A program made the translations under genes and the position numbers. Shown here piece by piece: positions 17,209 to 64,000 of a DNA stretch of 64,000 nucleotides. Source of the stretch: a virus; IMG/VR virus record IMGVR_UViG_3300028920_000039, positions 32,001 to 96,000 of that record; one strand, written 5' to 3'. The notes beneath the pieces are model-generated. The model did not search any database and was not told the DNA's origin. It was given only the letters and a program-made list of their open reading frames with translations. Position 1 is the first letter of the stretch. Each line of letters begins with the position of its first letter.

Positions 17209-17856
17209 GTGGAGAAGTACAAACTCTTAGTGACGGGTTGTGGAAGAAGCGGAACAAGTTTTATTTGCAGTGTGTTGGCGCAATGCAAACAACCACTTGA
17301 CCTTGGCCATGAAAGCTGGATAGGCAAGGACGGGATTGCTTCGTGGTTGTTGGCATTTGACAAGAAGCCTCCTCGCGGACCCCAGAATGTAACTTATAGA
17401 GATTTTGATATTGTCTTTCACCAAGTTCGACATCCCTTAGGAGTAATCTCTTCTCTTCACACTGCTGGACAGGAATCATGGGAGTTCTTTAAAGAGTGTG
17501 TTCCTGAATTAAAAGCGCATTCTTGGCCCTATATGCGCCGCCAAAAGGTTCATCCACAAGATGCTGATACACACCTCCTTGCTTGTGCTAAATGTTGGTA
17601 TTACTGGAATCTGCAAGCGGAAAAGATAGCGCAGTGGACGTATCAGGTAGAAAAACTGCCTGAGGTGTTTGAACAGTTTTGCCACAACGTCGGAATTCCA
17701 TACGATGCAGATGTTTTCTGCAAGAAGCTGAAGACAGACTCTCGCAAAACCCGAAGGGACTACGTTCAGATTTGCTGGTCTGATATTCAAGAATTGAGCC
17801 CAAAACTATGTAAGAAAATACAACAGCTTGCAAGGAGATACGGGTATGAGCAGTAG
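17209..17856 (+). CDS. sulfotransferase-family protein
   Basis: VTGCGRSGTSF (5'-PSB loop), GHE, QVRHPLGVISS (3'-PB). Confidence 0.75.
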   Translation: MEKYKLLVTGCGRSGTSFICSVLAQCKQPLDLGHESWIGKDGIASWLLAFDKKPPRGPQNVTYRDFDIVFHQVRHPLGVISSLHTAGQESWEFFKECVPELKAHSWPYMRRQKVHPQDADTHLLACAKCWYYWNLQAEKIAQWTYQVEKLPEVFEQFCHNVGIPYDADVFCKKLKTDSRKTRRDYVQICWSDIQELSPKLCKKIQQLARRYGYEQ

Positions 17857-19348: not shown

Positions 19349-19992
19349 TTCATTGTATTGGTGATAGTCATGTGGGTCTGTTTGCTGGCACAGACAAAGG
19401 TGTAAAGCATTGGCCTAGCAAGAAGTCACCAAACATTCTTCCATGGTTTCGAGCATACAGATTGGGGGGATGTTTGGCTTACAAGATCTGTGAGCCCAAT
19501 ACTCGCACAAGCGGCCATCGCCGTTTGATGCAGGTTCTTGATGAGATTCCTGACAAGCGAGTTCTGCTTAGTTTCGGGGAGATAGATTGTCGGTTGCATC
19601 TTTTGAAGCAGGTTAAGATTCAGAACCGACCTATCAAAGAACTTGTTTATGAATGTGTTAAACGGTACATTTCTTTGATAGTAAAGGTTCAAAACATGGG
19701 GTTTGAAACAATGGTATGGAATGCGCCTGCAACACATCGAGACGATTTTGTTCCTGACCCGAACAACCCTTCCGACGGTTCTTGTGTTGAGAGGAATGTG
19801 ATTACAAAGAAGTTCAATGATGCCCTCCGAAAGCTTCTCCCTGGAAATGTCCCTTTTATTTGCGTGTTTGACAAACTCCTTCTTTCAGATGGGACTACAA
19901 ACATGTATTACTACTATGATGGTACCCATCTTTCGCAGAAAGTGATGCCTTTTGTATTGGAAGAGTTTGCTAGGCAAGGTGTTGTGCTATGA
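19345..19992 (+). CDS. SGNH/GDSL-like hydrolase
   Basis: IGDSH, FGEIDCR, DGTH motifs. Confidence 0.7.
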   Translation: MIHCIGDSHVGLFAGTDKGVKHWPSKKSPNILPWFRAYRLGGCLAYKICEPNTRTSGHRRLMQVLDEIPDKRVLLSFGEIDCRLHLLKQVKIQNRPIKELVYECVKRYISLIVKVQNMGFETMVWNAPATHRDDFVPDPNNPSDGSCVERNVITKKFNDALRKLLPGNVPFICVFDKLLLSDGTTNMYYYYDGTHLSQKVMPFVLEEFARQGVVL

Positions 19993-20600
19993 TGGCATTC
20001 GATATTGGTGCTAATGTCGGGAAATTGACAGCTGAACTTTTGCGAGACTTCGATAAGGTGATCTGTGTAGAAGCAAATTCCGGCCTTATCAACAAGCTGC
20101 GCCGTCGCTTTGAATGGGCCGATGTGACTGTTGTTCACGCTGCCGCAGCTGAGAAGGAAGGCGGGCATATTCCTTTCTATGTAAGCAATGAACATACGCT
20201 TTCTACCGCATCGGTCGAGTGGATTACCAAATCTCGTTTTGCTGCTTCGTCTCGTTGGGACCGCCCGGTTGAGGTACCAACAACTTCACTGAATTACTTG
20301 ATGCGCATTTTTGGTGTGCCTGATTTCATAAAGGTAGATGTCGAAGGCTTCGAGCTGACTGTGTTTAAAGGATTGTCAAAGCCTGTCCCAAAATTATGCT
20401 TTGAATGGGCAGAAGAGCTGTTTTCTTCGACCGTTAAGTGTGTTAAGCGTCTACAGGAGATTGGCTACACGCAGTTCGGTCTGACCCATGGTGAGTACCA
20501 GAGGGACCAGCTAAATTCAGTTGAGTATGCTCGATGGGAACGGCTCATCTTTGACACAAGTTTGCGGAAACGTTATGGAATGATCTGGGCCAAAGTCTGA
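19989..20600 (+). CDS. FkbM family methyltransferase
   Basis: FDIGANVG, VEAN, PDFIKVDVEGFE. Confidence 0.92.
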   Translation: MMAFDIGANVGKLTAELLRDFDKVICVEANSGLINKLRRRFEWADVTVVHAAAAEKEGGHIPFYVSNEHTLSTASVEWITKSRFAASSRWDRPVEVPTTSLNYLMRIFGVPDFIKVDVEGFELTVFKGLSKPVPKLCFEWAEELFSSTVKCVKRLQEIGYTQFGLTHGEYQRDQLNSVEYARWERLIFDTSLRKRYGMIWAKV

Positions 20601-21295
20601 TGTTGTACACAGTTCAAATTCCGCTAAGAACCAGCCAAGCTCGTTACCAGATGTGTGTCGGTATCCTTGAGCAGCAGACCTTCAAGGACTTCGAGTTAAT
20701 AGTGGCTGATGATTGCACCGACCAGGAACCTCTCAAACCAATAAAAACGAGCTTTCCACATCGTTTGGTAAGGATGGGTCCACGTTCTCCCGGATGGGCC
20801 TATTCGCTTGGCAGAAATGTGTGCATCGACTTCGCCAGTCCCGAGGCACAATATTTGGTGTATGTAGACGGTGACTGGCTGCTCCATCCGAATGCTCTGC
20901 AAGACACTCGTCCTTTCCTGAACATGCATACAAACATCCATGGATGGAAAAAGTATATCAATGAGGAAGGAGTGGTTACGAGAGAACGCTGGTATGCAGA
21001 GCAGCAGATCTTGCCTTTTGATCTTGTGCTTGCTTCTGGTGGATTCGATGAAGTCTACTTCCCGTGGTACGGACATTCAGTCAAAGATCTGTGGCGTCGG
21101 ATGAACCGAATACGTAAGATGGAAGATCAAAATGTAGCTGAGTTTTCGGCTGATTGTATTGGTACAGATATTCGATTCCAACGAGACGACAAGGTGAATG
21201 CTCTGCTAACAAAGCGGCTGGCGAAAATGGGAACCAAGCAGCCCATCCTTCGACGAACAGTACCGGCTGAACTGGTGTATGAATACGGGTACTAA
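20600..21295 (+). CDS. glycosyltransferase family 2-like
   Basis: LEQQTFKDFELIVADD, YVDGD, GGFDEVY. Confidence 0.75.
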   Translation: MLYTVQIPLRTSQARYQMCVGILEQQTFKDFELIVADDCTDQEPLKPIKTSFPHRLVRMGPRSPGWAYSLGRNVCIDFASPEAQYLVYVDGDWLLHPNALQDTRPFLNMHTNIHGWKKYINEEGVVTRERWYAEQQILPFDLVLASGGFDEVYFPWYGHSVKDLWRRMNRIRKMEDQNVAEFSADCIGTDIRFQRDDKVNALLTKRLAKMGTKQPILRRTVPAELVYEYGY

Positions 21296-21304
21296 GGAGA
21301 TATC

Positions 21305-22027
21305 ATGCTCTACTCCATACAAATACCTATTAGAGGCCCACAGGTCATATACGATCGACAGATCGACGCCTTGTCGAGGCAAACTTGTCAAGATTTCGAG
21401 GTTATCGTCTGCGATGATTGTGCGAAGAAATTTCCTTGTTTGAAACCCCAACCCTCCTTGTTTCCTCAGAAGATGGTCAGAATCGTTGATCGAATAGATG
21501 GATGGGGCTATCCCATTGCACGCAATGCTGCTCTGGATAACTGCTCGAAGAAAGCCAAGTACATGGTTCGTCTTGATGGTGATTGGGTTCTTCGAAACAC
21601 TGTTTTGGAAGACATTCTTCCTTTGTTGTCGACCCATACTCTTCTGGAAGGGTTCAAGCTCGGAAGTAACGGGAAGCTAAAGGAATTCGCTCCTTTCTCT
21701 GTTATGCCTCTTGATGCTGTGTTTTCTTGCGGAGGGTGGGAGGAGGCTTTCTTTCCGTGGTATAGTGACTGGGAAGACTTCAAGCGCCGCCTGCTTTTGG
21801 TCAGAGAATTCGAGATTAAGAGTACTGAATTGCTCTTTGCTGATGACACAGGCGAAGCTGATATGACGACTGTTCGGGATCGTTCCCATACACGAAAGTT
21901 GGCCAAGTTCTTTGCGCGGCAAGGTACCACGGTTCCTCTCATGCGAGATCTGTTTGAGAACGAAGTTGTTTTCAAGTGTGGCTACAAAAAGAAAAGAAGC
22001 AAAAATGAGAATTGTGACCAGTTTTAG
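21305..22027 (+). CDS. glycosyltransferase family 2-like (paralog of 20600..21295)
   Basis: LSRQTCQDFEVIVCDD, RNAAL, RLDGD, GGWEE. Confidence 0.75.
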   Translation: MLYSIQIPIRGPQVIYDRQIDALSRQTCQDFEVIVCDDCAKKFPCLKPQPSLFPQKMVRIVDRIDGWGYPIARNAALDNCSKKAKYMVRLDGDWVLRNTVLEDILPLLSTHTLLEGFKLGSNGKLKEFAPFSVMPLDAVFSCGGWEEAFFPWYSDWEDFKRRLLLVREFEIKSTELLFADDTGEADMTTVRDRSHTRKLAKFFARQGTTVPLMRDLFENEVVFKCGYKKKRSKNENCDQF

Positions 22028-23567
22028 TGGACGTCTTTATTATACTACTGGTAAGGATGCTTTGAAGACTATGGCCACCCAGAGTGGTGCTGACTTGCCT
22101 GTTATCGCGTACCATGAGAACAGCTGGGAAGGCACTAATCCGATGAGTGGTCGAACTGTGTGTGAGGTTGACAAACTGGATGGTGTCACCTATCTGGATC
22201 TGTTTGAGTGTGTGCCTGATTTGAGAAAGGTGGTGGCGTACCCTGAGTGGGAACGAGGGAAGACCTACCTGAACAAGAATACCCCTTTTTTCCTTCGAAA
22301 GACAGCGGCAATGTGGCATGCCGTCACTGACAATCCTGCAGACATGTATCTCTGGCTTGATTGTGATTGTTACATGAAGAAGCCTTTCAATCGCCGCCTG
22401 CTTGAGTTCGCTGAGAATTATGACATTTGCTATCTAGACAGGCAACGCATCTCCACTGATACAGGTGTGATTTTCTTTAACACCAAGAAGAATCCCAGGC
22501 TTATTGACTTTATCAAAGAGTGGTACTATCTCTATCTCAACAAAGGTATCTTCAAGATTAAGGGATATGAATCTTGGGCCGATACTGACGCCTTTGACTT
22601 TCTCAGAAGGAAGTACCGAAATCTTTTCACCTTTGGTCAGCTTCAGTCAGGCGAAGGCAGGCGACTATGGTTCCAGCCACGGGAATGGGCGGCTTCTTCT
22701 AAGCGACATCCGTGGTCAATAGAGGAGGGGTGGGAGTATATCCTTCACCTCAAACATCCTCTTAAGAAAATCAGGAAGCCTGTGAAGAGTTCTCGCCCTA
22801 ACATTACTCAGAATCGAGGGCACATCTATGTGGCTTTCGGCAAAGAGTACGACAAAGTGGCGGTGCATTCAGTAGCTTTCCTGCGAAGGGTTTCAAACCT
22901 GCCTGTGCATGTGGTGACCAACATACCCATGTCAGATCGGCATCCTTCTTGGAACAAGCTGAGTAATGTGACGTTTTCCTACTGGCCGATGCAAGACGCG
23001 GATAACAGAGTGCCAAAGACCCTGCTATGCCAGTATTCACCATTTCAGGAAACTCTCTATACCGATGTGGACAGCTTGATACACTCCCCTAAGTTCATGG
23101 AAGTATTCGGCCTGCTTGAACAGAACGATATCCTGCTACCGATCTGGCGTCACAACATCTATGAGAACCAGCTTCCTATCGAATCAAGGCCGCTTTTCTC
23201 AAAGTTTCTTCGGCAATTTCCTCGTCCTGGTTTTCATCCGAAGCAGCCCCTTACCATATACGGGGGCGGTACTTGCGTCTTCAAAAAGAACGAGCAAGTT
23301 GAAAGGTTTTTCTTGATGTACAATGAGTACTGGAACCGCACAGGCAGAGGAAGAGACATGCCTGCCCTTGCCATCACCGTAGCTACCTGCGCTGACAAAC
23401 TAAGCATCGGTTTGCTGTCTAATGACTACAACCGCCATAATAGCAAGATCATTCAGTCGGTCCACGGTAAGGCCAGATCAAAACATCTCCCTTCTTATGT
23501 AGCTTTTCGGCCGAATGCGCAAACCAATCAATGGGAACACCAGAGGAAGAATGGCTCATGGGTATGA
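22005..23567 (+). CDS. two-domain GT-A glycosyltransferase
   Basis: N domain YLWLDCD; C domain GHIYVAFG...TLYTDVD. Confidence 0.7.
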   Translation: MRIVTSFSGRLYYTTGKDALKTMATQSGADLPVIAYHENSWEGTNPMSGRTVCEVDKLDGVTYLDLFECVPDLRKVVAYPEWERGKTYLNKNTPFFLRKTAAMWHAVTDNPADMYLWLDCDCYMKKPFNRRLLEFAENYDICYLDRQRISTDTGVIFFNTKKNPRLIDFIKEWYYLYLNKGIFKIKGYESWADTDAFDFLRRKYRNLFTFGQLQSGEGRRLWFQPREWAASSKRHPWSIEEGWEYILHLKHPLKKIRKPVKSSRPNITQNRGHIYVAFGKEYDKVAVHSVAFLRRVSNLPVHVVTNIPMSDRHPSWNKLSNVTFSYWPMQDADNRVPKTLLCQYSPFQETLYTDVDSLIHSPKFMEVFGLLEQNDILLPIWRHNIYENQLPIESRPLFSKFLRQFPRPGFHPKQPLTIYGGGTCVFKKNEQVERFFLMYNEYWNRTGRGRDMPALAITVATCADKLSIGLLSNDYNRHNSKIIQSVHGKARSKHLPSYVAFRPNAQTNQWEHQRKNGSWV

Positions 23568-24286
23568 AAGGGCACATCTATGTGGCTTTCGGCAAAGGAT
23601 ATGATGAACAAGCTGCTCATTCGGCCTTGGCAGCTCGTCGTTTTTCCACCCTCCCAATATGTGTTTTGACGAACCGGAGAAGCGGTAAGCGATCTAAGGT
23701 CTGGGACAAAGTTTCGAATGTGTCCTTTCTTGAATTTGATCTGACTGACAATGAGAATCGGGCTGTCAAAACTCGGATCGATGAGTATAGTCCTTACGAT
23801 GAGACGCTATACACCGACACAGACACAGTCATCCAGTCACCTCGATTCATACAGGGCTTCGACGCTCTACAGGATGCTCATGTGGCTTTCTCAATAGACC
23901 GTGTGTTCCGTCCTGGCCGAAAAGTTCTCAGGCTGTACCAGCAGGCAATGAACATGTTCAAGGTAGATCTGCCGATGGTTGTGTATCAGGGCGGGGTGTG
24001 TTTCTTTCAGAAGTGCCAGCCTACTACGGAGTTTTTTACTTTGTGGAACGCTTATTGGCAGCAGTTCGGAAGAGGCAGAGAAATGATGTGCTTGGCATGT
24101 GCTGCCAAGAATGTGATTGGAGTTGCAATCGGCATACTTTCCAGGGAGTTTGGGCACCCTCATAGTACTATCATTCAGCATTTCCACAGTGCTTCCGCTC
24201 CACACACTGATCTCATTCCGAAGATCAAGAAGAACAAACCTTTTGACAAGGTGTACGGTCGTAGAAAATGGGATTGGGTGGACTGA
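23564..24286 (+). CDS. GT-A glycosyltransferase (GHIYVAFG paralog family)
   Basis: GHIYVAFG...SPYDETLYTDTD...YQGGVCFF. Confidence 0.7.
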   Translation: MKGHIYVAFGKGYDEQAAHSALAARRFSTLPICVLTNRRSGKRSKVWDKVSNVSFLEFDLTDNENRAVKTRIDEYSPYDETLYTDTDTVIQSPRFIQGFDALQDAHVAFSIDRVFRPGRKVLRLYQQAMNMFKVDLPMVVYQGGVCFFQKCQPTTEFFTLWNAYWQQFGRGREMMCLACAAKNVIGVAIGILSREFGHPHSTIIQHFHSASAPHTDLIPKIKKNKPFDKVYGRRKWDWVD

Positions 24287-25041
24287 TGCGGTTTCTCATC
24301 ATTTCTCGACAACGCGCTGGTTCGCACATGTTGTCTTCAATGCTTGACTCTCATCCTGATCTGACTTGCTTCGGTGAGGCAGAAAATGTGGCTTGGCTGG
24401 ACAGGTTGCATGAAGGCCAAGGCGCTATGATCAAGTACAACCGTGTTGAAGATCGGGAGAAGCTGGGGCAGTTCCGTTTGATACATTTGGTGAGGAAAGA
24501 TTTGTTGGAGCTTACTATCTCCAACTACCTTCTGAAATGCACCACTAAACTAGGAAGCAGTGTGCCGTTTCATAAAGTGCATACAGACTCAGACGACTTG
24601 CTGATATGGGGCGAAACCATGGAAGGTGATGCGTGCTGGGACAAGGATTTTACACCTGCTGTTTTGCAAGAGGACCGCACGAAGAACAGGTACAGGTACA
24701 CAACCGACAAGCAGACCGGCTTTCCGATTGATCTCCTGAGCGCTGGTTCACTCGGAAAGGTGATGGGTCGCCTGTGTGAGGAAGTGCTTTCGTGGCATGA
24801 TTTTCTCAAAGACAGGGCGCTCACTGTTTTCTATGAGGACATTGTTGGCTCGTCTCGAGAGACCACAACAATGCCTGAGGATATTTCTCGCAGGATCTGC
24901 AGACATCTGGGTGTGCCCCAGCACACCATGACAACGTCTTTTAAGAAGGTGAACAAGTTTGATCGACACTCTCTTCCAAAGAAGGTTCGTCATTTAAAAT
25001 CGCAGTTGCGTGATATGTATGTAAACACCTTGTTAACATGA
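24286..25041 (+). CDS. sulfotransferase, Stf0-like
   Basis: IISRQRAGSHMLSSMLDSHPDL.CFGE, IHLVRKD, VFYEDI. Confidence 0.75.
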   Translation: MRFLIISRQRAGSHMLSSMLDSHPDLTCFGEAENVAWLDRLHEGQGAMIKYNRVEDREKLGQFRLIHLVRKDLLELTISNYLLKCTTKLGSSVPFHKVHTDSDDLLIWGETMEGDACWDKDFTPAVLQEDRTKNRYRYTTDKQTGFPIDLLSAGSLGKVMGRLCEEVLSWHDFLKDRALTVFYEDIVGSSRETTTMPEDISRRICRHLGVPQHTMTTSFKKVNKFDRHSLPKKVRHLKSQLRDMYVNTLLT

Positions 25042-26575: not shown

Positions 26576-26955
26576 AGACCCTTATACACATCACAGGCAA
26601 AAAGCTAACGCTCAAGTTTTCTCCTGAGGGTGCGCTTTCCAGTGCACGGTTAGATGGTAAGAGTGTGACAGATGAGCTAATGTATGTGAAGAAGGCCAAC
26701 TCCACTGAATCTCTGTCAGTGTTTGGGTTTGGTGAAAGGTGGGAACCCGGGTTGGTTGGTTGCTTCAAACGCCTTGAGGCCATACTGGAACCTATGAACT
26801 TTTCCATCCTTAAGGTCGACAAAGTGCGGCAGGATGTGTATGAGATTTTCTTGTGTTCTTCCAAAGACACAGCATTCGTCAACCGAACAGCTCTCATGAG
26901 TCTGCATTACAATCACCGAGAAGACAAGTTCGTTGCAGTTGTAAAAACATACTAA
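26572..26955 (+). CDS. hypothetical protein
   Basis: ATGA-coupled ORF. Confidence 0.6.
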   Translation: MKTLIHITGKKLTLKFSPEGALSSARLDGKSVTDELMYVKKANSTESLSVFGFGERWEPGLVGCFKRLEAILEPMNFSILKVDKVRQDVYEIFLCSSKDTAFVNRTALMSLHYNHREDKFVAVVKTY

Positions 26956-26966
26956 GGAGGTACGAT

Positions 26967-27395
26967 ATGTATACAGTTCGAAAGAAGTTCACAGTAGAAA
27001 TGTCTCACCAGCTTGAAAGAGCATACAGCAGTTGTTGCACTGATTGTATACATGGCCACTCGTATACAATCGAGTTGTTTTTCACTGCCTCAGTGCTTGA
27101 CGAAAACGGTATGGTGATTGATTTTGGAGAGGTGAAGGAAGTCTGTAAACCCGTCATTGATCAGTTTGATCATGCATTGGTTCTTCCTAAGAGTCTTGCT
27201 GAGAAATATGGGCCTCACATGGCTGCTCTAAGCAAAAAACTGATTATTGTTGATGCGAACCCGACTGCTGAGTGGATGGCCTTTCATTTGTACACCGTTA
27301 TCTGCCAGGCGCTTCCTGAGCTGTTCAAGGTGCGAGTTCACGAAACAGTCACTGGTTGGGCTGAGTGGTTTGAAGACAAAAAAGACCAGATATGA
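26967..27395 (+). CDS. queD: 6-carboxy-5,6,7,8-tetrahydropterin synthase (QueD/PTPS)
   Basis: KKFTVEMSH, C..IHGHSY, GMVIDFGEVK, DHALV, PTAEWMA, VRVHET. Confidence 0.92.
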   Translation: MYTVRKKFTVEMSHQLERAYSSCCTDCIHGHSYTIELFFTASVLDENGMVIDFGEVKEVCKPVIDQFDHALVLPKSLAEKYGPHMAALSKKLIIVDANPTAEWMAFHLYTVICQALPELFKVRVHETVTGWAEWFEDKKDQI

Positions 27396-51987: not shown

Positions 51988-54036
51988 ATGACCACCGCGG
52001 CGACTCCGGCTATTGATTATACAGCGAGGGACTTCCTTACAATCAAGGAAGCACTCAAAGAGCATTTGAAAGCCAAGTTCCCGACGACTTGGCGAGACTT
52101 CTACGAGTCCAGTGCAGGTATTGCAATCCTTGATTTGATTGCTTACAGCCACGATGTTTTGAGCTTTGGGCTTGATTATACAGCCAATGAGCTGTATCTT
52201 CCGACGGCGCGAGACAGAGATTCGGTCCTGCTCTTGGGTCGGCTGGTTGGTTATCAGTTGCGCACTGCAACATCTGCTTCGGTTGTTTGCACTTCTCGAA
52301 TCGATTCTACCTACACAGAAGGCATCATCATTCCTGCTGGCTCCACTATCAAGAGCACAGGCAATGTTGATTTCGTGACAACTGAGGATGCGCGGATTGA
52401 GGCTGGTTCCGTAGTTGGTACAGTTACTTTTGTTCAAGGCGTCAATGTCACAGAGAACTTCTCGTCTGATGGTTCAGCCTTTCAGAAGGTTAATCTAACC
52501 AGGTATTCGGTGGTACAGGGCACCGTGTCAGTTTTGGTTGATGGTGATGAATGGACTGAGGAGACGTCACTGGCGTATGCTGGTGCTAACAGCAACGCTT
52601 TTTCTGTTGAGTATGCTGAGGATGGCGTCGCTACAGTGGTATTTGGTGATGGTACTAGCGGAAGGGTTCCTCCGGTGGGTTCTAACATCGAGGTCACATA
52701 TCGAACAGGTGGTGGCTTATCTGGTAATATTGCTTTGAATGAAATCAGCGGAACCGTCCAAGGCTACCGGGAACTTGTGAGCCCTACTGCTTGGGTTACA
52801 GTTAATATTCTCAATGATGCACAGAGAGGTGCCGGCGGTGAGGAAGCCGAGTCAGTATCTCACGCCAAGTTGTGGATTCCGCCTTGGATCAGAGCAAACG
52901 GTCGAGCGGTAACCGAAACAGACTATGACGCTCTCGCCAATGCTTTCTCAGATTCTACCTACGGCGCACCAGCATTTGCTAAGTCGAAGCTGAAGCAAGA
53001 GATTCCTGAGCTGAATACGGTCGAGCTGTATGTCTGGGCGCGTGATTCAGGCGGTGATATTGTAACGCCGTCTCAGGGGCTTAAGGACGCGCTTGACACC
53101 TACTTTAACAACAACGGGACAGGTTCAGTCAAGTGCATTTGTACTCACACAGAGGTGGTCGACGGGCTGATTGTTTACATTGATGTGAGCATAGCGATCC
53201 GGGTTGCCACATCGTATGTCTCTGCCGGTGTCATCACAGAGGTGCAAACGACTATCGAATCGCTGTTCGATTCTTCTGAGGTCGCTCCGGGCCAAGACTT
53301 TCGGTTGAGTGCTCTATATGAAGCAGTTCACTCACTGGCTGGTGTTGACTACTGCTTGGTTCGTAGCCTGGTCGCTTCTTACATCACTACAGAGATAGTA
53401 GGGGTAGGAGATGATACTGACGTTACTTTCACATCCACATTGGATCTTGATCCTGGGCTTGAGGTGGTTCCGCATACTGTCAGGATGTACTACGGTGCAG
53501 AGACAGAAGTCCTAACGGATGATGGTGAAGGGAATCTCCTCGACTCGATCCAGACCGTCAAAGGATCTATCGACTACGAGACAGGCTCTATCACAGGCAT
53601 CTTCGCTTCAGCGCCGGCAAGCGGTGCTTCGGTTTATGCTGAGTATCGCCACAAACTCGACTATGCTCGTGGTGAGGTGGAAGACACTGGCGACGGGACG
53701 ACAACAATATTTGAAGGTGCTGTCACCTACCCTCCTGTGAACCCTTATGATCCTACCACAGGGCAGAAAGGCATCGCTTTCAGCGATGGCAACCAGGTCA
53801 TTTTGGATGATGGAGACGGGAATCTGGTTGATGACCCAACCGACCCTTTGTCGTCGAACAGAGGCTTAATCGATTACGGAACAGGGGGCTACACCTTGCG
53901 GTTTCCCAACCCCCCTCCGAATAACGCTGAGATCCGCAGCACTTACATGCAGATCTTAGAGACCGATTCGCAGGATATTCCGATAGAGAAGAGCCAGATA
54001 GCAGTTAAAGGTCTGATCACCATCTCGACACTATGA
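51988..54036 (+). CDS. baseplate wedge protein (T4 gp6 / P2 gpJ-like) with two C-terminal DDGxGNL beta domains
   Basis: DYTARDF..IK..L, DFYESSAG, FGDG..G.VP, RAVT.TDY. Confidence 0.88.
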   Translation: MTTAATPAIDYTARDFLTIKEALKEHLKAKFPTTWRDFYESSAGIAILDLIAYSHDVLSFGLDYTANELYLPTARDRDSVLLLGRLVGYQLRTATSASVVCTSRIDSTYTEGIIIPAGSTIKSTGNVDFVTTEDARIEAGSVVGTVTFVQGVNVTENFSSDGSAFQKVNLTRYSVVQGTVSVLVDGDEWTEETSLAYAGANSNAFSVEYAEDGVATVVFGDGTSGRVPPVGSNIEVTYRTGGGLSGNIALNEISGTVQGYRELVSPTAWVTVNILNDAQRGAGGEEAESVSHAKLWIPPWIRANGRAVTETDYDALANAFSDSTYGAPAFAKSKLKQEIPELNTVELYVWARDSGGDIVTPSQGLKDALDTYFNNNGTGSVKCICTHTEVVDGLIVYIDVSIAIRVATSYVSAGVITEVQTTIESLFDSSEVAPGQDFRLSALYEAVHSLAGVDYCLVRSLVASYITTEIVGVGDDTDVTFTSTLDLDPGLEVVPHTVRMYYGAETEVLTDDGEGNLLDSIQTVKGSIDYETGSITGIFASAPASGASVYAEYRHKLDYARGEVEDTGDGTTTIFEGAVTYPPVNPYDPTTGQKGIAFSDGNQVILDDGDGNLVDDPTDPLSSNRGLIDYGTGGYTLRFPNPPPNNAEIRSTYMQILETDSQDIPIEKSQIAVKGLITISTL

Positions 54037-54037
54037 C

Positions 54038-56574
<2,537 letters not shown>

Positions 56575-56578
56575 TACA

Positions 56579-57445
56579 ATGGCATACGATTCGCAGATAC
56601 GTTTAGATTACCACAAACCACTCCTTATTGATGGTAAGCCGATGTTGGAGTGTTGTTGTGATCCGTGCTATTGGCCTGTGATAGAAGATTTGTGGCCACC
56701 CAACAACTACACTCAATATGGCACCACAGCTACTCATCCTTTCTGGTGTTACGTGGATTATAGGTTCTGTGATTGGGTGAAGCTTGATGTTTATGCTGGA
56801 TCGGGATGTACAGGTTTTTTAGGAGGGGACTGGATATTCACAACTTACTCTTCTGCAACGAACTGGCTAACGATCACTGCTAGAGAAACCGTTGCACCTT
56901 TCAACCCCATTCAGTTTCCTTCTGGTACTACTATTTATTGGAAAGTTACTGCTTACAACAATTGTGGTGGCGAACATCGATTTACATTCGGACCCTGCAG
57001 AAAATGGACTTATATAGGTGATACAGGCAATGATTGCAACAACTGTGTGCCCAAATTGCCGAACAATGTCACAGTCATATTTTCCAACATGACAGGGTCA
57101 TTCACTCTTTTTCAGAACAAGAGTCCTGTAGTGTGTTCCTATACTTCATATTGTCACTGGGAGAAGGTGGGGGGAGATTTGGGGTATTTCTATGTGGGTC
57201 TTCCTCCTACAATTCCTGTAGGCAGAAGGGTTGAGGTTGATGTGGATGCAAATGGCATATGGAGAGTGTATGTGCTTCATAGTTACTCGCCTACAGGCTT
57301 GTTTTCTTGTTTCTGCCGTTGGCGCCATGGCAATCCTGGCTGTCCTTGTACCAGCCCCCCTCTAATCACGATCCCTTACAGTGCAGATCTACAGTGGTGC
57401 TCGGGCACCACAACCACTCAAGCCAACATAACGGTGGCTGTATGA
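56579..57445 (+). CDS. Cys/aromatic-rich putative fibre or receptor-binding protein
   Basis: ECCCDPC, CNNC, CFCRW..GNPGCPC; fibronectin-like IYWKVTAYN. Confidence 0.6.
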   Translation: MAYDSQIRLDYHKPLLIDGKPMLECCCDPCYWPVIEDLWPPNNYTQYGTTATHPFWCYVDYRFCDWVKLDVYAGSGCTGFLGGDWIFTTYSSATNWLTITARETVAPFNPIQFPSGTTIYWKVTAYNNCGGEHRFTFGPCRKWTYIGDTGNDCNNCVPKLPNNVTVIFSNMTGSFTLFQNKSPVVCSYTSYCHWEKVGGDLGYFYVGLPPTIPVGRRVEVDVDANGIWRVYVLHSYSPTGLFSCFCRWRHGNPGCPCTSPPLITIPYSADLQWCSGTTTTQANITVAV

Positions 57446-58075: not shown

Positions 58076-61000
58076 ATGGCTATACGCTACTACTGTGGAG
58101 ACGGTTGGAAAACCGTTTCCTTTGCTCGCAAGGATATGGGCGCAGATGCTTATCTATTCTGCCCCGGTCCTTCATTGGAGCATGTGTCGGATGCTGACAT
58201 CCATGTTCCGGGTGTGATGGTATTTGCTGTCAACACTGCTTACCCTCGAATTCGACCCGATGTCTGGATAGGAATGGACGTCAAGGAGAAGTGTTACGAC
58301 AAAGCTCTCTGGAGTGAGCCTTTCAGAAAGATCTGTCGAGCCGGGCGTTCGAAGGCAGGGGTGGACGGTAAGAAGATCTGTGAGTTCCCTGAGGTGTACT
58401 GGGCTGATGTTTCTGGTGATAACATCAAGGATATTTTCAATGGGCGGGCCCATGATTCTTGCTTTGTTTACATGCATAATACCTTAACAGTTGCTTGTCA
58501 TATCATGGTGTGGATGGGGGCCAAGAGGATCCATTTCGTCGGTTGTGATCAGGACAATTCGAAGAAGGACTATCATGACAATCGCAAGTTGCATGATCGT
58601 GACAGAGAAGAGAACTTCCGCCTGTACAAGAAGCAGACAAAGTTTCTACGGCAATTCATGACGTTAGGTCTCCAGCATGGCATTGAGTGTATTTCTTGTA
58701 CCCCGGGTTCGCCGATAAATGAGTTCATGGACTACGTTCCTCTTCAGGAGGCCTTGCGTGTTTCTCAGGAGAAGTCGCCAAAGCGTGGCTACAGTGAGAT
58801 TCTGAATACACGAGAGGTGGAGCGCAAGCAGCTTCAGCAGTGGGGCACACCTGAGCTTGGTAGAGGTGTGGTAGTAGCCTTCAATGAGAACATGGAGTGG
58901 ATGGGGGAATGGTGGTGGGAGAATCTGCGAAGGCATGTGGATGTGTCCGCACCGGTTGCATTTGTTGATCTAGGAATGTCGCCTCCAATGCGCAAATGGT
59001 GTGAGAACAGAGGGCGTATCATTGATTTCACTTGGTCTCCGATTCGTCCTGACGGTGACAAGAAAACGTTTCGAGTAGAGCATGGCTGGAAGCCTTTCGT
59101 CTTTTTCAAGTCGCCGTTCAGGGAAACATTGTTCCTCGATGTTGACTGTGAAGTAGTAGGCGATGTGCTATCGGTGTTTGAGCATCTTGGAAAGAACCGT
59201 TTCGGGATCGCTAAGGACCAGTTGTACCATCAGTTGAAATCGAAGCAGGAACTCTTGCCCGGAGAAGTGATGCACAATAGCGGTGTGTTGGCTGTTAGGC
59301 ATGGCTCAAAGATCGTCGAGCAGTGGGCCAAGGCTATTATTGATGTAGGTGTTGATGGATGGAGAGACAATGATCAGCCTATTCTCAACAAAGTACTCAC
59401 CACATCCGGTATCGAATACGCAGAGATTCCGCCGGAGTACAACCTGCTAGCTCCGTATGCTCAGAACTGGAAGAGCCGATGCAAGGCTGAGGTTGTCACT
59501 TCACCGAAGGTGCTTCATCGGTTGACATCACATCCTCATTCTTTCAACACGCTTCGAACTATTCTTGAAGAGCGCTTTTGTGTAGACGGTATCTGGCTAA
59601 GAGATGCAGATATCTTCCTCAAGTGTTTGTGGGCAAACGAAGCGATGGCAGATAAGGGTGTGGTGATCGGAGTTGACGCTAACCAAGAGTGGATGATACC
59701 ATGGTGGGTTGAGAATTATCGTAGGCATAACAATTACCCTGTGTTGGTAGCCGATTTCGGGTTGACGGATGATGGGATCGAGCTTTGCCGCCAGCTGAAC
59801 CTTGGAGTATCGGCGACCGTTTCACTTGAAGGCCACGGTTGGTTCAAGAAGCCACTCGGTTGTCTTCAGACGATATTCAAGAAGACTGTATGGATGGATA
59901 CAGATGTCGAAGTTCGAAAGGATATCGGTCCGCTGTTTGACTACAGTGAGAACAACATGTTTGGCATCACATACGACCGCGGTACCCCTCAGCAGTACAA
60001 AGATGCCATGCCTTGGGACGCGACTATCTACAACAGCGGTTGTATCTCGTATCGTCACAACGACCCTCTTATTCAGAAGTGGGCTATGATAACAGTGATG
60101 ACCCACGAGCTGAAACCACAGCCTGGGAAGTTGTTCTGCGTCTGTGGTGACCAAGAAACGTTGGCGATGGCTATTCGTCGTTACGCTAAACATCGAATTC
60201 ACAGGATACCGAAGGAGGACTTTGCCCTTCGGCTGAGCAGCGATCCAGATGACTGCATTGCCAAACACTGGACTGGTCCGACAGGTAAGAAGGTCATCAA
60301 ACAGCAGATGGCGGATTCTCGTAAGGACATCGGGGTGATGGTGGGTCTTCTGGACGAGGACACTGAATGGTTGCTTGAATGGTGGTATGCCAACTACAAG
60401 CGCTACAACGACCTGCCTGTGTGTTTTGTTGACTGTGGCATGAGCGATTCGGCACGAGCTTTTTGTGAGGAACGAGGCCGGATTGTAAAGCTGGTCACCA
60501 AACCCCATATCAAGAGCTGGTTCAGAAAGCCGTGGGCACTTCTCGAAACACCATTTCAGCGAACACTTTTCATTGAGACTGATGTCGAAGTCAGAGGCAA
60601 CATCAGAGATCTTATCGTGAATACAGGCGGTCTTGGCATGGTGTACGAGCGTTCCACTAAAGAAGAGTCGGTTGCTTTGAAGAGACATTTTGGTGATAAG
60701 AGGCGGCATAATGTTCCTGACGATGCGCTTGTATACGATGGCGGTCAGCTTGTTTTCAACAGTGACGAGCCAATGCTACAGAGGTGGGCCGATGCCGTTG
60801 AAGAAACCAAGCACCTGCCTGCATGCAACACTGACAACAGCGGTCCGGTGGAGAACGGGTTTGTTGGCGACCATGAGATTCTTGCCAAGGTAATGTATGA
60901 GATGCGTAAAGGGGTTCACATTATGCCACGGTGTGCCAATAAGTACTATGGGCCGCCAAAGGACAGTCTCTTGTATCACAGATGTGGCTACAAAGGGCAA

Positions 61001-62362
61001 GGAAAGGATTCCATCAAGCGTCAGACAGAACGGAAGCAGTTGCCCGAAACCTCGAAACCAAAATCTGTTGTTGAGCAGGATAAAGGTGTGCTTGTCGGCA
61101 TTTTGTATGAGGACACAGAGCAGATGTTGGACTGGTGGATGGGCAACTACTTGTGGCACAACTCATTGCCTGTTTGCTTCGTAGGCTACAAGACAACTCC
61201 TGAAACCAGGGAGAAGTGCGAGGCATGGGGCATCTTCATCGATATTAGCGACATCAATTTCGTGGAAGGTCGTTGGAAGCGCCCCTTTGCTATGCAGCGG
61301 ACGCCTTTCAAGCATACCGTGTGGATAGATATCGATTGTGAGGTGAGGGGTAATGTAGGACGGCTTCTCGATATGAAGTCCCCTTCTCTTATGTTTGAGC
61401 GTCGAACTGAAAAGCTGACTATGGTGTCTAATCTACAGACAACTGCTGATCCACGTCAGTGGGCTAATGTGCCTTCTCAGGCAAAGGCTTTTGATGCTGG
61501 GGTAGTGCGTTTCGACAAAGGGTGCGATCTTATTGCTAAATGGTGTGAGCGATGCAAGATTGTCAGAAGGCTACCGGTAGAAATGGTAGAGGATGAGGTC
61601 TTTGCTGAGGAAAACGGTTTCGTCTATGATCAGGAGGTGCTGTCACTGATTGTGCATGAGAATCAGGTACCTGTTGGTTGGATCCCAAACAAAAATTGTC
61701 GAAACAAGCATTACGGCGACAGCGGTGTCTTTCAGGTGTATCATCGTTGTGGTGGTGGGCTTGAGGGCAAGGGCGGTATCCGAAAGCAGATTCGGGAGCA
61801 TCCGATTGTCATCAGACACAACAGTTTGGTGCTGGCTTGCCGAAAAGATCTTCTTGCTCGGATGGGGCAGAATGTGGTTTGTTGTGAAGTAGGAGTTGGT
61901 GAAGGAGAGCTCTCTGTCAAGATCAACTCTATGCTTCATCCTAAGAAACTGCATCTGGTGGACCTATGGAAGCACCAGGAAGAGGGTTACGAAGACGAAA
62001 ACAATGTGAGTGATGAAGAGCACGCTCGTCGAAAGGCGCATGTTGAAGGCATATTCAAGAACTGCGCCAATGTTCAGATTCATCAGGGCTGGTCTACCGA
62101 TGTCGTTGCACAATTCCCTAATCACTACTTTGATTTTGTGTACATTGATGCTAACCACTACTTCGATCCGGTACTGGCTGATCTCGAAGCATACGCTCCT
62201 AAGGTCAAAAAGAATGGGTTCCTATGCGGTCACGACTATGCTGGTTTGAACCCCATGTTTGAGGTTGAGGAGGCTGTCCAAGAGTTTTGTAACAGGCACA
62301 ACTGGCGGTTACTCTACACCACAGATGAAGAGTGGCCCAGCTTCGTTTTGAGGCGGTTATGA
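58076..62362 (+). CDS. multidomain glycosylation enzyme: Maf/DUF115-like domain, 4 tandem GT-A domains, class I SAM methyltransferase
   Basis: CPGPSL...FVGCD; four W..WW..NY..H...KP....PF..T.(F/W).D.D.EV units; EVGV, VDLW, DFVYIDANH, GHDY. Confidence 0.8.
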   Translation: MAIRYYCGDGWKTVSFARKDMGADAYLFCPGPSLEHVSDADIHVPGVMVFAVNTAYPRIRPDVWIGMDVKEKCYDKALWSEPFRKICRAGRSKAGVDGKKICEFPEVYWADVSGDNIKDIFNGRAHDSCFVYMHNTLTVACHIMVWMGAKRIHFVGCDQDNSKKDYHDNRKLHDRDREENFRLYKKQTKFLRQFMTLGLQHGIECISCTPGSPINEFMDYVPLQEALRVSQEKSPKRGYSEILNTREVERKQLQQWGTPELGRGVVVAFNENMEWMGEWWWENLRRHVDVSAPVAFVDLGMSPPMRKWCENRGRIIDFTWSPIRPDGDKKTFRVEHGWKPFVFFKSPFRETLFLDVDCEVVGDVLSVFEHLGKNRFGIAKDQLYHQLKSKQELLPGEVMHNSGVLAVRHGSKIVEQWAKAIIDVGVDGWRDNDQPILNKVLTTSGIEYAEIPPEYNLLAPYAQNWKSRCKAEVVTSPKVLHRLTSHPHSFNTLRTILEERFCVDGIWLRDADIFLKCLWANEAMADKGVVIGVDANQEWMIPWWVENYRRHNNYPVLVADFGLTDDGIELCRQLNLGVSATVSLEGHGWFKKPLGCLQTIFKKTVWMDTDVEVRKDIGPLFDYSENNMFGITYDRGTPQQYKDAMPWDATIYNSGCISYRHNDPLIQKWAMITVMTHELKPQPGKLFCVCGDQETLAMAIRRYAKHRIHRIPKEDFALRLSSDPDDCIAKHWTGPTGKKVIKQQMADSRKDIGVMVGLLDEDTEWLLEWWYANYKRYNDLPVCFVDCGMSDSARAFCEERGRIVKLVTKPHIKSWFRKPWALLETPFQRTLFIETDVEVRGNIRDLIVNTGGLGMVYERSTKEESVALKRHFGDKRRHNVPDDALVYDGGQLVFNSDEPMLQRWADAVEETKHLPACNTDNSGPVENGFVGDHEILAKVMYEMRKGVHIMPRCANKYYGPPKDSLLYHRCGYKGQGKDSIKRQTERKQLPETSKPKSVVEQDKGVLVGILYEDTEQMLDWWMGNYLWHNSLPVCFVGYKTTPETREKCEAWGIFIDISDINFVEGRWKRPFAMQRTPFKHTVWIDIDCEVRGNVGRLLDMKSPSLMFERRTEKLTMVSNLQTTADPRQWANVPSQAKAFDAGVVRFDKGCDLIAKWCERCKIVRRLPVEMVEDEVFAEENGFVYDQEVLSLIVHENQVPVGWIPNKNCRNKHYGDSGVFQVYHRCGGGLEGKGGIRKQIREHPIVIRHNSLVLACRKDLLARMGQNVVCCEVGVGEGELSVKINSMLHPKKLHLVDLWKHQEEGYEDENNVSDEEHARRKAHVEGIFKNCANVQIHQGWSTDVVAQFPNHYFDFVYIDANHYFDPVLADLEAYAPKVKKNGFLCGHDYAGLNPMFEVEEAVQEFCNRHNWRLLYTTDEEWPSFVLRRL

Positions 62363-64000
62363 AGAGAACCCGTTGGCTGAACAATCCAATCTCCCATCCT
62401 TCTCGTTATCATCCTGTTTACCGAACTGACGAAGGCGAGTACAAGGTATTCAGGATGCGCGGTAAGAAGATAGTGATGGATGTCAACACTCTGGACCTTT
62501 TTCAACCACCAGACAACGGAGATCCGGTGGCTCCGCCGATGCCTGTCTTACCTCAGTTTGTTCGTCCTCACATGCGAACTATCAAGCAGTTGGCACTGAA
62601 TGTTACGCATGCTTGTCAGTTACGGTGTGACTACTGCTATCTGTCTCACTTTTACCCAGAGATGGAAGCCAAGATGGGTGTTGACACAGCTATCAGAGCA
62701 GTGGATGAGCTCTTTAACCACTCGGCACTGGATAAACTGCCTGACGATTACACAGGCAGGGGTCCAGGCATTTCCTTCTTTGGTGGCGAACCTCTTCTTA
62801 ATTTTCCTCTCATAGAAGCAGTTGTAGCACACGCGAGAAGCCGGTCAAAACACTTTAGATTCGGTGTTACCACTAACGGGGTAGCAGTGACACCTTCTAT
62901 AGCAAAATTCCTGGCAGAGAACAAATTCTCAATGATTGTATCGGTTGATGGCCCCAAAGCCTTACATGATAAGCACCGAAAGTTTCCTGATGGCAACGGT
63001 TGTTTTGATTCAGTAGTTGAAGGCCTGGAGATGTTGCGTGATGCTGGTGTTGAGAAAATCACTCTGCGTTCAACTTTCTTACCTGATGAAACAGAGCTGC
63101 TGGAGCGAACCAAGTATCTGAACGAACTGTGCGACAACAATTATGCTCAAAATGTTTCAATTGAGCCTGCTTGCTTATCGGAAGGCTGTGCTTTTGATGG
63201 TGAGGTGCGGTTCACGGTTGCAAATGTAAAAAAGCTGCAGAAGGAGTATCTTGTTGTTGCTGATTGGTTGGCTTCTCGAATCATTGATGATGAGAAAGCA
63301 CGGTTTCACAACATCATGTCATATGTGGATCGGTTGGTCAACAAGAAGCAGTATTGTACCGAGTGTGGTGCCGGGGTAGGTTTTTTGGCAGTTTCCCCTG
63401 TAGGCAAGATCTGTGCGTGCCATCGAGAGATGAATTCGGAGATTGGCGATCTTGAAAGAGGTGGTGTTTGTGAGAAGGCTCGAGCTCCGTGGTTTGACAA
63501 TAGATATTACCTTTGTCAGAAGTGCACAAGATGCAAGATTCGAAACCTCTGCGGAGGGCCATGTCGAGAACACAACATTACGGCAAAAGGTGATATGCAC
63601 ACTCCCGATCCTGTTTTTTGTGAGTTCTACAACATCTGGGCGAAGGCAGCAGTGTCGATTCTAGACCAAGTGGAGCACAAGAAGTTACAGGAGCTGTTTC
63701 CTGCTTACAAGAAACGACAACCTACCATAGTCAGGAAAGCTGTCGAGGAGGAGTACGCATTCGTTAGAGAAGCGGGTGGCTTTGGGGATATTGTGAGTAT
63801 AGGTGCTGCGGCTCGATGCTTGAAGCACGAGAAGCCAGATTGTCATATCACTTTGTATGTCCCGGGTGAATTCAAGAATGTGGTACAGCACTTGAAAGGT
63901 GTGGATGAGATGGTGAGTCTGGGTTCTCTACGTGAGTTGGTTGACGTCAGACGGAAGCGGGGCACACCTTTCAGTCGAGCCGATTATCCCTACTTGGAAA
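62359..64000 (+). CDS. radical SAM/SPASM protein fused to GT9-like glycosyltransferase (3' truncated; absent from ORF track)
   Basis: my translation from ATG 62359 has no stop to the window end: CQLRCDYC (62614..62637), FFGGEPLLNF, TTNG, SVDG...HD..R; SPASM CGAG...CACH...CTRC...CGGPC...C; then FVREAGGFGDIV...LK...PD..I. Confidence 0.9.
   Translation, partial: MKRTRWLNNPISHPSRYHPVYRTDEGEYKVFRMRGKKIVMDVNTLDLFQPPDNGDPVAPPMPVLPQFVRPHMRTIKQLALNVTHACQLRCDYCYLSHFYPEMEAKMGVDTAIRAVDELFNHSALDKLPDDYTGRGPGISFFGGEPLLNFPLIEAVVAHARSRSKHFRFGVTTNGVAVTPSIAKFLAENKFSMIVSVDGPKALHDKHRKFPDGNGCFDSVVEGLEMLRDAGVEKITLRSTFLPDETELLERTKYLNELCDNNYAQNVSIEPACLSEGCAFDGEVRFTVANVKKLQKEYLVVADWLASRIIDDEKARFHNIMSYVDRLVNKKQYCTECGAGVGFLAVSPVGKICACHREMNSEIGDLERGGVCEKARAPWFDNRYYLCQKCTRCKIRNLCGGPCREHNITAKGDMHTPDPVFCEFYNIWAKAAVSILDQVEHKKLQELFPAYKKRQPTIVRKAVEEEYAFVREAGGFGDIVSIGAAARCLKHEKPDCHITLYVPGEFKNVVQHLKGVDEMVSLGSLRELVDVRRKRGTPFSRADYPYLE

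Follow-up and report, generated by a model that had tools for sequence, protein, structure and literature searches.

The window, i.e., the whole stretch of 64,000 nucleotides analysed here, belongs to a tailed phage with P2-type baseplate genes; the source phage is uncultured. Near the window end, one reading frame encodes a radical SAM (rSAM)/SPASM domain followed by a GT9 glycosyltransferase domain (Table 1). From the letters, this frame had been read as starting at ATG 62359 and lacking a stop as far as the window end, and it is indeed open over these 547 codons; in the parent virus record (135,046 bp), it continues unbroken between both domains to a TAG stop and yields 794 aa (L002:4360-6744), with a DTSxxH motif (residues 691-696) and a four-Cys knuckle (C736/C740/C752/C756) encoded past the window end. 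The choice of ATG 62359 as the start codon seems plausible, because GAGG lies 5 nt before it and the ATG is shared with the preceding gene in an ATGA overlap. At its downstream edge, the gene overlaps the next one by 8 nt. It is, therefore, part of a translationally coupled run, with baseplate J/I-like and fibre genes on one side and a GT-A gene on the other; the operon as such is bordered by the baseplate J/I-like genes and by genes for tail-fold proteins.

Table 1. Positions of the fusion gene, its domains and motifs, and relevant upstream genes in the window.
Feature	Position	Strand	Remarks
Baseplate J-like wedge protein	51988..54036	+	Marks the operon as baseplate/fibre
P2 gpI-like baseplate protein, 242 aa	54038..54766	+	C-terminal end C-x3-C-E-x3-E; candidate substrate
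602-aa protein	54766..56574	+	N-terminus gpI-like, collagen-like G-x-T repeats; candidate substrate
Six-Cys array in the 602-aa protein, residues 235-264	55468..55557	+	Glu at +5 of every Cys
1428-aa multi-domain glycosyltransferase/methyltransferase (GT8, sialyltransferase-like, Methyltransf_24)	58076..62362	+	Stop overlaps the fusion start in ATGA
rSAM/SPASM-GT9 fusion gene	62359..64000, plus 744 nt past the window to G000 position 96744 (L002:6744)	+	794 aa
N-terminal beta domain, residues 1-75	62359..62583	+	Conserved MDVNTLDL motif; resembles a reduced RRE: three strands, no predicted helices
Radical SAM cluster motif C86-x3-C90-x2-C93	62614..62637	+	
SPASM seven-Cys motif, C336 to C421	63364..63621	+	Two auxiliary [4Fe-4S] clusters expected
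Inter-domain linker, residues 446-462	63694..63744	+	pLDDT <50 for 451-462
Start of GT9 GT-B domain (whole domain, residues 463-794)	63745..64000	+	GGFGD477 within the window

Conservation and origin of the fusion

The rSAM/SPASM-GT9 fusion is a real feature. Fourteen full-length homologues (41-50% identity), comprising 13 metagenomic proteins (P0003-P0014) and the IMG/VR locus L004, carry both halves in one frame, with conserved residues in each. All of them are unnamed and come from ENA, Logan and JGI metagenomes, and a scan of 185,579 species genomes yielded distant partial matches only, with no full-length fusion homologue. A frameshift, a misassembly or a stop lost in one sequence might be suspected from the relative L003, whose rSAM half contains an in-frame TAG. 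However, the likelihood of such an artefact is practically nil, given fourteen independent full-length sequences from different samples that keep a single frame, with both halves and the length of the linker conserved; the stop or frameshift between the domains that the sequence-only reading had named as fatal to it is not there. The TAG of L003 lies at a variable position, and its interpretation as a selenocysteine at a cluster Cys was rejected. In the databases and literature searched, no protein of rSAM/SPASM plus GT9 architecture is named or characterised, in line with that reading, which had supposed a joining of a peptide-modifying rSAM with a glycosyltransferase to be undescribed.

Fused genes are the less common arrangement of a gene pair that is widespread among phages. 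In about 17 related phage contigs, with gene context taken from IMG/VR loci, rSAM and GT9 are neighbouring separate genes that often overlap, by 4 nt in the split pairs of L005 and L010. In the rSAM tree, the fused forms are explained by one change, i.e., one origin, and their clade (SH-aLRT 97) also includes two unfused rows; L016 falls within it, yet has no GT9. The fusion enzyme would have arisen by the joining of two neighbouring, translationally coupled genes such as those present in many related phages.

The radical SAM/SPASM and GT9 halves

Residues 1-445 constitute a radical SAM/SPASM enzyme similar to CteB, PapB and QhpD, and every motif is intact. The CxxxCxxC, the GGEPLLN and the full SPASM Cys set recognised by eye were all recovered, the last over exactly the span first proposed. 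The cluster motif reads CQLRCDYC, its three Cys being invariant in the alignment of fusion homologues, and GGEPLLN occupies residues 142-148. The SPASM layout is C336-x12-G349-x4-C354 ... C389-x2-C392-x5-C398-x3-C402 ... C421, in which all seven Cys and G349 are invariant among the 13 sequences aligned. The Pfam model Radical_SAM (PF04055) matches above its cut-off (E 7e-19, 69 bits vs. 29.5). The SPASM model (PF13186) reported no match at E up to 1; the motif and the fold are nevertheless present, and more distant homologues do match this model.

In structure, residues 1-445 match CteB (PDB 5WGG; VIA Z 36.4, rmsd 2.7 A, 388 residues aligned) and anSME (Z 29), and the rSAM/SPASM fold superposes on both up to residue 440. 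In HMM comparison, the CteB/SCIFF maturase is the closest (E 2e-59), and the PapB, QhpD and SCIFF profiles match at E 1e-57 to 3e-49. Nevertheless, every NCBIfam equivalog cut-off is missed: 168 bits vs. 425 for the SCIFF maturase (TIGR03974), 195.8 vs. 340 for PapB (NF047865), 190 vs. 453 for QhpD (TIGR03906) and 56 vs. 525 for TIGR04463. The two best of these matches, PapB and, in second place, QhpD, are enzymes linking Cys to Asp or Glu. Since the scores lie below the cut-offs of TIGR03974, NF047865 and TIGR03906, the rSAM half appears as a sister family to the SCIFF maturase, PapB and QhpD, and not as a member of any of them. The likeness to SCIFF maturases that had been noted in the N-terminus thus holds as kinship and not as membership, and the SCIFF-type RRE start proposed there appears to survive only as a three-strand remnant. 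Residues 25-75 superpose on the start of CteB, but around 50 CteB residues lack a counterpart; in comparison with an N-terminal PqqD-like winged helix of three strands and three helices, taken as the RRE yardstick, the predicted model has three strands (28-33, 36-41 and 47-49), with no helices ahead of residue 95.

Fused to a glycosyltransferase and surrounded by glycan genes, the rSAM domain might instead, like BlsE, DesII and BtrN, tailor a sugar or nucleotide sugar for transfer by the GT9 domain, which would make the protein a two-step glycan pathway enzyme; the lower-scoring structural matches do include SPASM/twitch enzymes that act on sugars (7VOB, Z 18; DesII, Z 17; BtrN, Z 15). This role is improbable, however, as peptide and protein modifiers match best by a wide margin both in structure (CteB and anSME) and in profiles (PapB, QhpD and SCIFF), the seven-Cys SPASM motif is complete, and the rSAM is strongly associated in both directions with the Cys arrays described below, even where GT9 is missing.

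Residues 463-794 are a GT9 GT-B glycosyltransferase with a four-Cys knuckle. The GT9 assignment of the sequence-only reading, made from residue 468 (window 63760), where FVREAGGFGD begins, is borne out by sequence and structure. Residues 670-718, which are encoded past the window end, match Glyco_transf_9 (PF01075) with 33.3 bits, the cut-off being 22; in structure, residues 458-779 align with 3TOV at Z 23.3, and WaaC and RfaF reach Z 21-22. TibC, with Z 19.4, matches no better than the LPS heptosyltransferases and, in both sequence and structure, the GT9 half is no nearer to it than to these enzymes, which are its closest GT9 relatives. The models of LPS heptosyltransferases I, II and III (TIGR02193/02195/02201) give 39.9/185, 22.3/135 and 23.6/170 bits, respectively, all below cut-off. 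Fused and split forms alike have G473, G474, G476, D477, D691 and H696 without exception, and the GGxGD477 and DTSxxH motifs and the four knuckle Cys are likewise invariant in them. By motif resemblance, D477 and DTSxxH are putative equivalents of Asp13 and the D-T-G-x-x-H motif of WaaC. The GT9 half is presumably an inverting GT-B enzyme, with the four-Cys knuckle as a putative metal site. Queried by itself, the GT9 half had no match at E 1e-5 in a word-indexed search; in an exhaustive profile search, some 448 representatives were recovered at E 1e-30, and most of these are standalone proteins 305-360 aa long. A search for phage-encoded ADP-heptose synthesis (SIS and cytidylyltransferase-like families) found none.

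Cysteine arrays in virion proteins and the proposed function

Arrays of C-[E/Q]-x-x units are present in upstream gpI-like fibre proteins of nearly all close loci, with 6 units in this phage and 108 in one relative. A reverse search, starting from the arrays, used a DNA pattern of five CE-x-x units, which mostly returned 12-bp tandem repeats in short frames; only matches in long ORFs with diverse arrays were counted as positives, and seven tandem-repeat loci served as controls. An rSAM homologue was present in 10 of the 12 records with diverse arrays vs. none of the seven controls, and none was found in L175, an array-rich provirus record. Moreover, an extra E/Q lies one unit past the last Cys in ~70% of true array ends and before the first Cys in ~30%, an asymmetry that fits a pairing of Cys(i) with E/Q(i+5).

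RiPPs are the products for which the rSAM branch concerned is chiefly known, and some RiPPs (glycocins) are glycosylated; the fusion could be a conventional RiPP maturase that produces a small secreted glycosylated ranthipeptide, e.g., a phage-encoded bacteriocin, from an unannotated short precursor. This is very unlikely, since an all-against-all neighbourhood comparison of 20 loci revealed no conserved small Cys-rich precursor ORF (the small ORFs recurring in them are antisense shadows of enzyme genes), the RRE appears reduced to strands, neither a protease nor an exporter was found in the neighbourhood of the fusion gene, and the Cys arrays sit in large baseplate/fibre proteins of 199-1473 aa. 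The likely substrate is a virion protein and not a small RiPP precursor.

GT9 is dispensable for the association between arrays and rSAM, because only three of the 10 rSAM-positive array records have it and L016 does without it. In two GT9-less relatives, a GT4-like GT-B follows the rSAM, in L018 as the next gene and in L023 after a few others, and the pairing of rSAM with a GT-B enzyme thus outlasts the exchange of the GT family. Two possible acceptor signatures were considered: loci with and without GT9 do not differ in the Ser/Thr content of their arrays, and the occurrence of collagen-like G-x-T repeats does not follow that of GT9; therefore, no specific acceptor is indicated.

The GT9 half could also target a non-virion acceptor. 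This might be the host LPS core or envelope glycans, with receptor masking or superinfection exclusion as the effect, or else a free glycan; the fusion would then ensure co-expression only. The kinship with LPS heptosyltransferases, the array-bearing phages that may do without GT9 and the lack of any array feature correlated with it all agree with such a target. It is, however, rather unlikely in view of the stable gene order, the overlapping stop and start codons and a fusion kept across 41-50% sequence divergence, of the GT4-like GT-B that takes the slot of GT9, and of the location of the gene inside a baseplate/fibre operon, beside further glycosyltransferases, and not in a lysogeny or moron region.

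On balance, and with moderate confidence, we favour a bifunctional virion-protein maturase in which a thioether-forming rSAM and a GT9 act on baseplate/fibre proteins. The N-terminal half, a radical SAM/SPASM enzyme with three clusters, would belong to the branch that forms thioethers (CteB, PapB and QhpD). It would take hydrogen from the side chains of Glu or Gln within the C-[E/Q]-x-x arrays that gpI-like baseplate/fibre proteins carry; each Cys sulfur would then be bonded to the acidic or amide residue at +5, resulting in ranthionine-type staples. More tentatively, the GT9 domain may add a sugar from a host-made nucleotide sugar to the same protein or its glycan, and the flanking GT-A, GT8 and methyltransferase enzymes could then extend it. 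Judged from sequence, thioether stapling of a virion protein is likely, and glycosylation of the same protein by the GT9 half is plausible. The analysis establishes which domains are present and that their motifs are intact, the conservation of fusion and gene pair, the place in the operon and the statistical link between this rSAM family and the arrays; the reaction and the +5 pairing are inferred from these, and the GT9 acceptor even more so. A narrower version, in which one polypeptide would form Cys-Glu/Gln thioether staples through its rSAM and glycosylate the same array via the four-Cys knuckle of its GT9, as TibC does with TibA, is conceivable, but somewhat less likely than not. It would represent the first case on a virus particle of thioether chemistry of the RiPP type and of protein glycosylation by a GT9, as well as the first natural ranthisynthase-glycosyltransferase fusion.

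Radical SAM thioether synthases have so far been associated with small peptide natural products, and proteins are rare among their targets (QhpC and, in 2026, CrpA). The neighbouring genes suggest that the fusion enzyme staples, and perhaps glycosylates, baseplate/fibre proteins of its own phage, a role that is not known to have been described. If true, RiPP chemistry would reach the structural proteins of viruses through a phage baseplate/fibre operon, providing an enzymatic route to redox-insensitive, protease-resistant and sugar-coated host-recognition fibres. The fusion is predicted to be a compact, self-contained enzyme with two activities, and a clear candidate substrate is encoded a few kilobases away.

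Comparison with known systems

CteB, the SCIFF/thermocellin maturase (PDB 5WGG/5WHY), and PapB share with the fusion enzyme the fold of the whole rSAM/SPASM unit, the CxxxCxxC and the seven-Cys SPASM motif, and in the candidate substrates, too, an acceptor lies a few residues past a Cys. However, the fusion enzyme scores below both cut-offs, appears to retain only three strands of the RRE and has a glycosyltransferase attached, and in place of a peptide of ~45 residues, its candidate substrates are virion proteins of large size containing as many as ~100 repeats.

QhpD and CrpC provide the precedent for thioethers in proteins rather than RiPPs. [quoted passage not shown] In contrast, the fusion enzyme is encoded in a phage structural operon, its candidate unit is C-[E/Q]-x-x, it scores below the cut-offs of both families and, unlike either system, it includes a glycosyltransferase.

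With WaaC/RfaF and TibC/Aah, the GT9 half shares the GT-B fold and, by motif resemblance, probably an N-terminal GGxGD with an invariant Asp and a C-lobe DT[SG]xxH...P..(G)PT, whereas it lies far below the heptosyltransferase equivalog cut-offs (40/185 bits) and its phage has no ADP-heptose genes. TibC, a GT9 of the BAHT family (TibC/Aah), performs protein O-heptosylation on repeat arrays, with a four-Cys iron finger that contacts the substrate (PMC4358343). [quoted passage not shown] As in TibC, the four-Cys knuckle is inserted near the C-terminal end of the C-lobe, but its spacing is C-x3-C-x11-C-x3-C vs. C339, C342, C358 and C370 in TibC, and the TibC-type beta-barrel is absent, the N-terminus being occupied by the rSAM domain.

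A Thermus phage rSAM-module preprint and a cyanophage paper were considered as precedents and rejected, as their rSAM genes are unrelated. Finally, glycosylation of mycobacteriophage capsids and tails has reportedly been described by Freeman et al. in 2023. That system has no radical SAM partner, Cys arrays or GT9, but there, as here, the phage has glycosyltransferase genes next to those of structural proteins, and virion proteins are the presumed targets of the enzymes.

The fused gene and its two halves

The reading frame that the sequence-only reading had described as open from ATG 62359 to the window end (547 codons) continues on the parent IMG/VR record (135,046 bp, rated complete by CheckV, with the window at bases 32001-96000), where it closes with a TAG to give the 794-aa protein P0002. 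A GAGG lies 5 nt upstream of the ATG, which overlaps as ATGA with the stop codon of the 1428-aa gene before it, and the gene on the 3' side begins 8 nt ahead of the fusion stop. The CxxxCxxC, GGEPLLN, SPASM Cys and FVREAGGFGD motifs noticed from sequence are all present where they had been placed.

Coordinates of the fusion, its neighbours and related features (window positions unless a locus or record is named; L002 is the fusion locus on the parent record, G000)
Feature	Position	Remark
gpD-like and gpV-like baseplate genes		upstream of baseplate J-like gene
Baseplate J-like wedge protein	51988-54036	upstream
P2 gpI-like protein, 242 aa	54038-54766	upstream
602-aa protein	54766-56574	upstream; gpI-like N-terminus, collagen-like G-x-T repeats
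288-aa Cys-rich protein	56579-57445	between fibre gene and GT genes; CCCDPC run
Two unknown proteins		between 602-aa protein and 1428-aa gene
1428-aa protein		directly upstream of fusion; GT8, sialyltransferase-like and methyltransferase domains
Fusion P0002	L002:4360-6744	794 aa
rSAM cluster motif	C86-x3-C90-x2-C93	sequence
GGEPLLN		rSAM half; sequence
Seven-Cys SPASM motif	C336 to C421; 63364-63621	sequence
Inter-domain linker	residues 451-462	low confidence in AlphaFold2 model
FVREAGGFGD	from residue 468	GT9 half; sequence
GT-A enzyme, 281 aa		downstream of fusion
Two phrog_5417 paralogues, 143-152 aa		downstream of GT-A
Regulators and queC	queC L002:10032-10688	further downstream
QueE-like small radical SAM enzyme	G000 112526-112780	same phage
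Second glycan-tailoring run	17828-25041	DUF268 methyltransferase-like, FkbM methyltransferase, two GT2, sulfotransferase
141-aa ORF	L206:2870-3295 (G000 26869-27294)	head module, right after portal gene; 4.7 kb before window start
GT-A fused to phrog_5417 domain	L006:12247-13599; L012:4297-5613; L022:13197-14486	related phages
Two tandem GT9 genes	L022:11160-13200	related phage
Intein-bearing genes	L022:8720-11149; L025:9749-12337; L029:9899-12439; L029:12449-14143	related phages

Both domain assignments were right. Among the family models proposed for checking, the Pfam models Radical_SAM (E 7e-19) and Glyco_transf_9 (33.3 bits against a cut-off of 22, residues 670-718) both match. The SCIFF maturase model (168 bits) stays far below its cut-off, as do the other top NCBIfam models, PapB (196 bits), QhpD (190) and nif11 maturase (187); with the heptosyltransferase I model, whose cut-off is 185 bits, the GT9 half scores 40. 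When the 13 full-length homologues were combined into a profile, CteB (5WGG) was hit with E 2e-59 and RfaF (1PSW) with E 9e-5. In the AlphaFold2 model made on that alignment (mean pLDDT 83), the N-terminal half matches CteB (Foldseek E 5e-23) and superposes on it over 388 residues (model 25-439; VIA Z 36.4, rmsd 2.7 Å), and the C-terminal half (model ~458-780) matches the GT9 structures 3TOV (Z 23.3), RfaF (21.6), WaaC (21.1) and TibC (19.4). As to the proposed RRE-like N-terminus, residues 1-75 are modelled as three strands without helices, so they would form at most a reduced RRE. A classical RiPP seems very improbable.

Fused and split forms

The rSAM-GT9 fusion is real and conserved. Among 5.8 billion proteins, 13 full-length relatives were found (775-790 aa, 41-50% identity, 96-100% query coverage), all unnamed and from ENA, Logan or JGI metagenomes; they span both halves, and the stop or frameshift between the domains that would have undone the fusion was not seen. 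Invariant alignment columns occur in both halves and include all cluster cysteines and, in the GT9 half, G473, G474, G476, D477, D691, H696 and cysteines 736, 740, 752 and 756; standalone GT9 partners likewise keep this four-Cys knuckle and the catalytic-looking positions without variation. No close relative occurs among 185,579 prokaryotic species genomes. Two further phage loci, in IMG/VR, are fused, L004 and L003, the latter with a lone in-frame TAG (L003:5758-5760) at a variable position (RA*W), for which sequencing error, a pseudogene and stop-codon reassignment are all possible explanations.

About 17 more phage contigs carry separate adjacent rSAM (450-530 aa) and GT9 (313-400 aa) genes in unchanged order, frequently overlapping or almost contiguous (4-nt overlap in L005 and L010). 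In the rSAM-domain tree, one change suffices for the 14 fused forms, whose clade (SH-aLRT 97) also includes L016, a contig lacking GT9, and a single protein that is not fused; split pairs are dispersed over the remainder. An exhaustive profile search at E 1e-30 gave ~448 representatives of this GT9 group, the majority standalone and only a handful fused to rSAM. The most fitting description of the protein is a phage-specific rSAM and GT-B module in its fused form, set within a baseplate/fibre operon. In three related phages the rSAM homologue is split by an intein, as is the gene after rSAM in L029; these inteins combine Hint/Intein_splicing with a LAGLIDADG or HNH endonuclease domain.

Operon and candidate substrates

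The cassette of rSAM, GT9, GT-A and two phrog_5417 genes is found in at least 11 non-redundant loci, three of which have GT-A and a phrog_5417 domain joined in one protein. The profile of the GT-A family matches chondroitin and heparosan synthases (E 3e-7), and the phrog_5417 model resembles a domain of the Haloferax tailed virus 1 tail protein (E 5e-7), its proteins being tied to tail-collar fibre clusters in the ESM Atlas. QueC and the QueE-like enzyme indicate 7-deazaguanine DNA modification, a system unrelated to the SPASM enzyme.

The 602-aa protein, to which the gpI Pfam model gives no match despite an N-terminus resembling that of the 242-aa protein, has six cysteines in residues 235-264, each with Glu at +5, and the 242-aa protein carries a C-terminal C-x3-C-E-x3-E motif. 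The same tag occurs in the 141-aa head-module ORF, which has the C-terminus ACASYCEVSDES and may be a third substrate. The 288-aa Cys-rich protein has neither a family match nor a C-E array. Homologous upstream fibre/baseplate proteins in related loci bear C-[E/Q]-x-x arrays, from a few units up to 108 in one 615-aa protein; arrays are absent from more distant rSAM loci. E/Q continues one unit past the last Cys in ~70% of true array ends and stands one unit ahead of the first Cys in only ~30%, an asymmetry in keeping with a pairing between Cys(i) and E/Q(i+5). When IMG/VR was scanned for five consecutive CE-x-x units and simple 12-bp tandem repeats were discarded, an rSAM homologue was found somewhere on the record in 10 of the 12 records with diverse arrays in long ORFs, compared with none of seven tandem-repeat controls. 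L175, a 43.6 kb provirus (IMGVR record G008) in which an 875-aa ORF contains CxxxC spacings 153 times and CE units 97 times, is an exception to this association, no rSAM homologue being found on its record. Within a functional account that is computational throughout, drawn from sequence, model and gene context, the best-supported role of the N-terminal half is probably thioether stapling of these arrays in virion proteins, for which QhpD/QhpC and CrpC/CrpA, the latter shown in 2026, are SPASM-enzyme precedents of protein-scale ranthionine crosslinking (PMC13692751).

Role of the GT9 half

Since GT9 is present in only three of the ten rSAM-positive array records and is missing from L016 of the fused clade, it is accessory to the array-rSAM core. 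A pathway shared by rSAM and GT9 is nevertheless favoured by a stable, translationally coupled gene order, by a fusion kept across deep divergence, by a GT4-like GT-B gene after rSAM in two GT9-less relatives (directly 3' with a 4-nt overlap in L018, several genes 3' in L023), alongside a cytidylyltransferase-like gene immediately 5' of rSAM in L013, and by an operon rich in GT and methyltransferase genes. Tailoring of a sugar by the rSAM half is a live, if improbable, alternative to stapling.

That the GT9 half glycosylates the same virion proteins is plausible, if tentative, and draws no support from any acceptor signature: neither Ser/Thr at array x positions nor collagen-like repeats differ by GT9 status. 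An envelope or LPS target, though less likely, is also a live reading. An ADP-heptose pathway was not found among the phage genes. TibC/Aah represents a protein-directed GT9 branch, which hyperglycosylates a repetitive beta-helix and whose four-Cys iron finger serves substrate contact (PMC4358343). The four-Cys knuckle of the fusion occupies a comparable site, close to where the C-lobe ends at the C-terminus, but differs from that of TibC in Cys spacing, and TibC is no nearer to the modelled GT9 half than WaaC and RfaF are.
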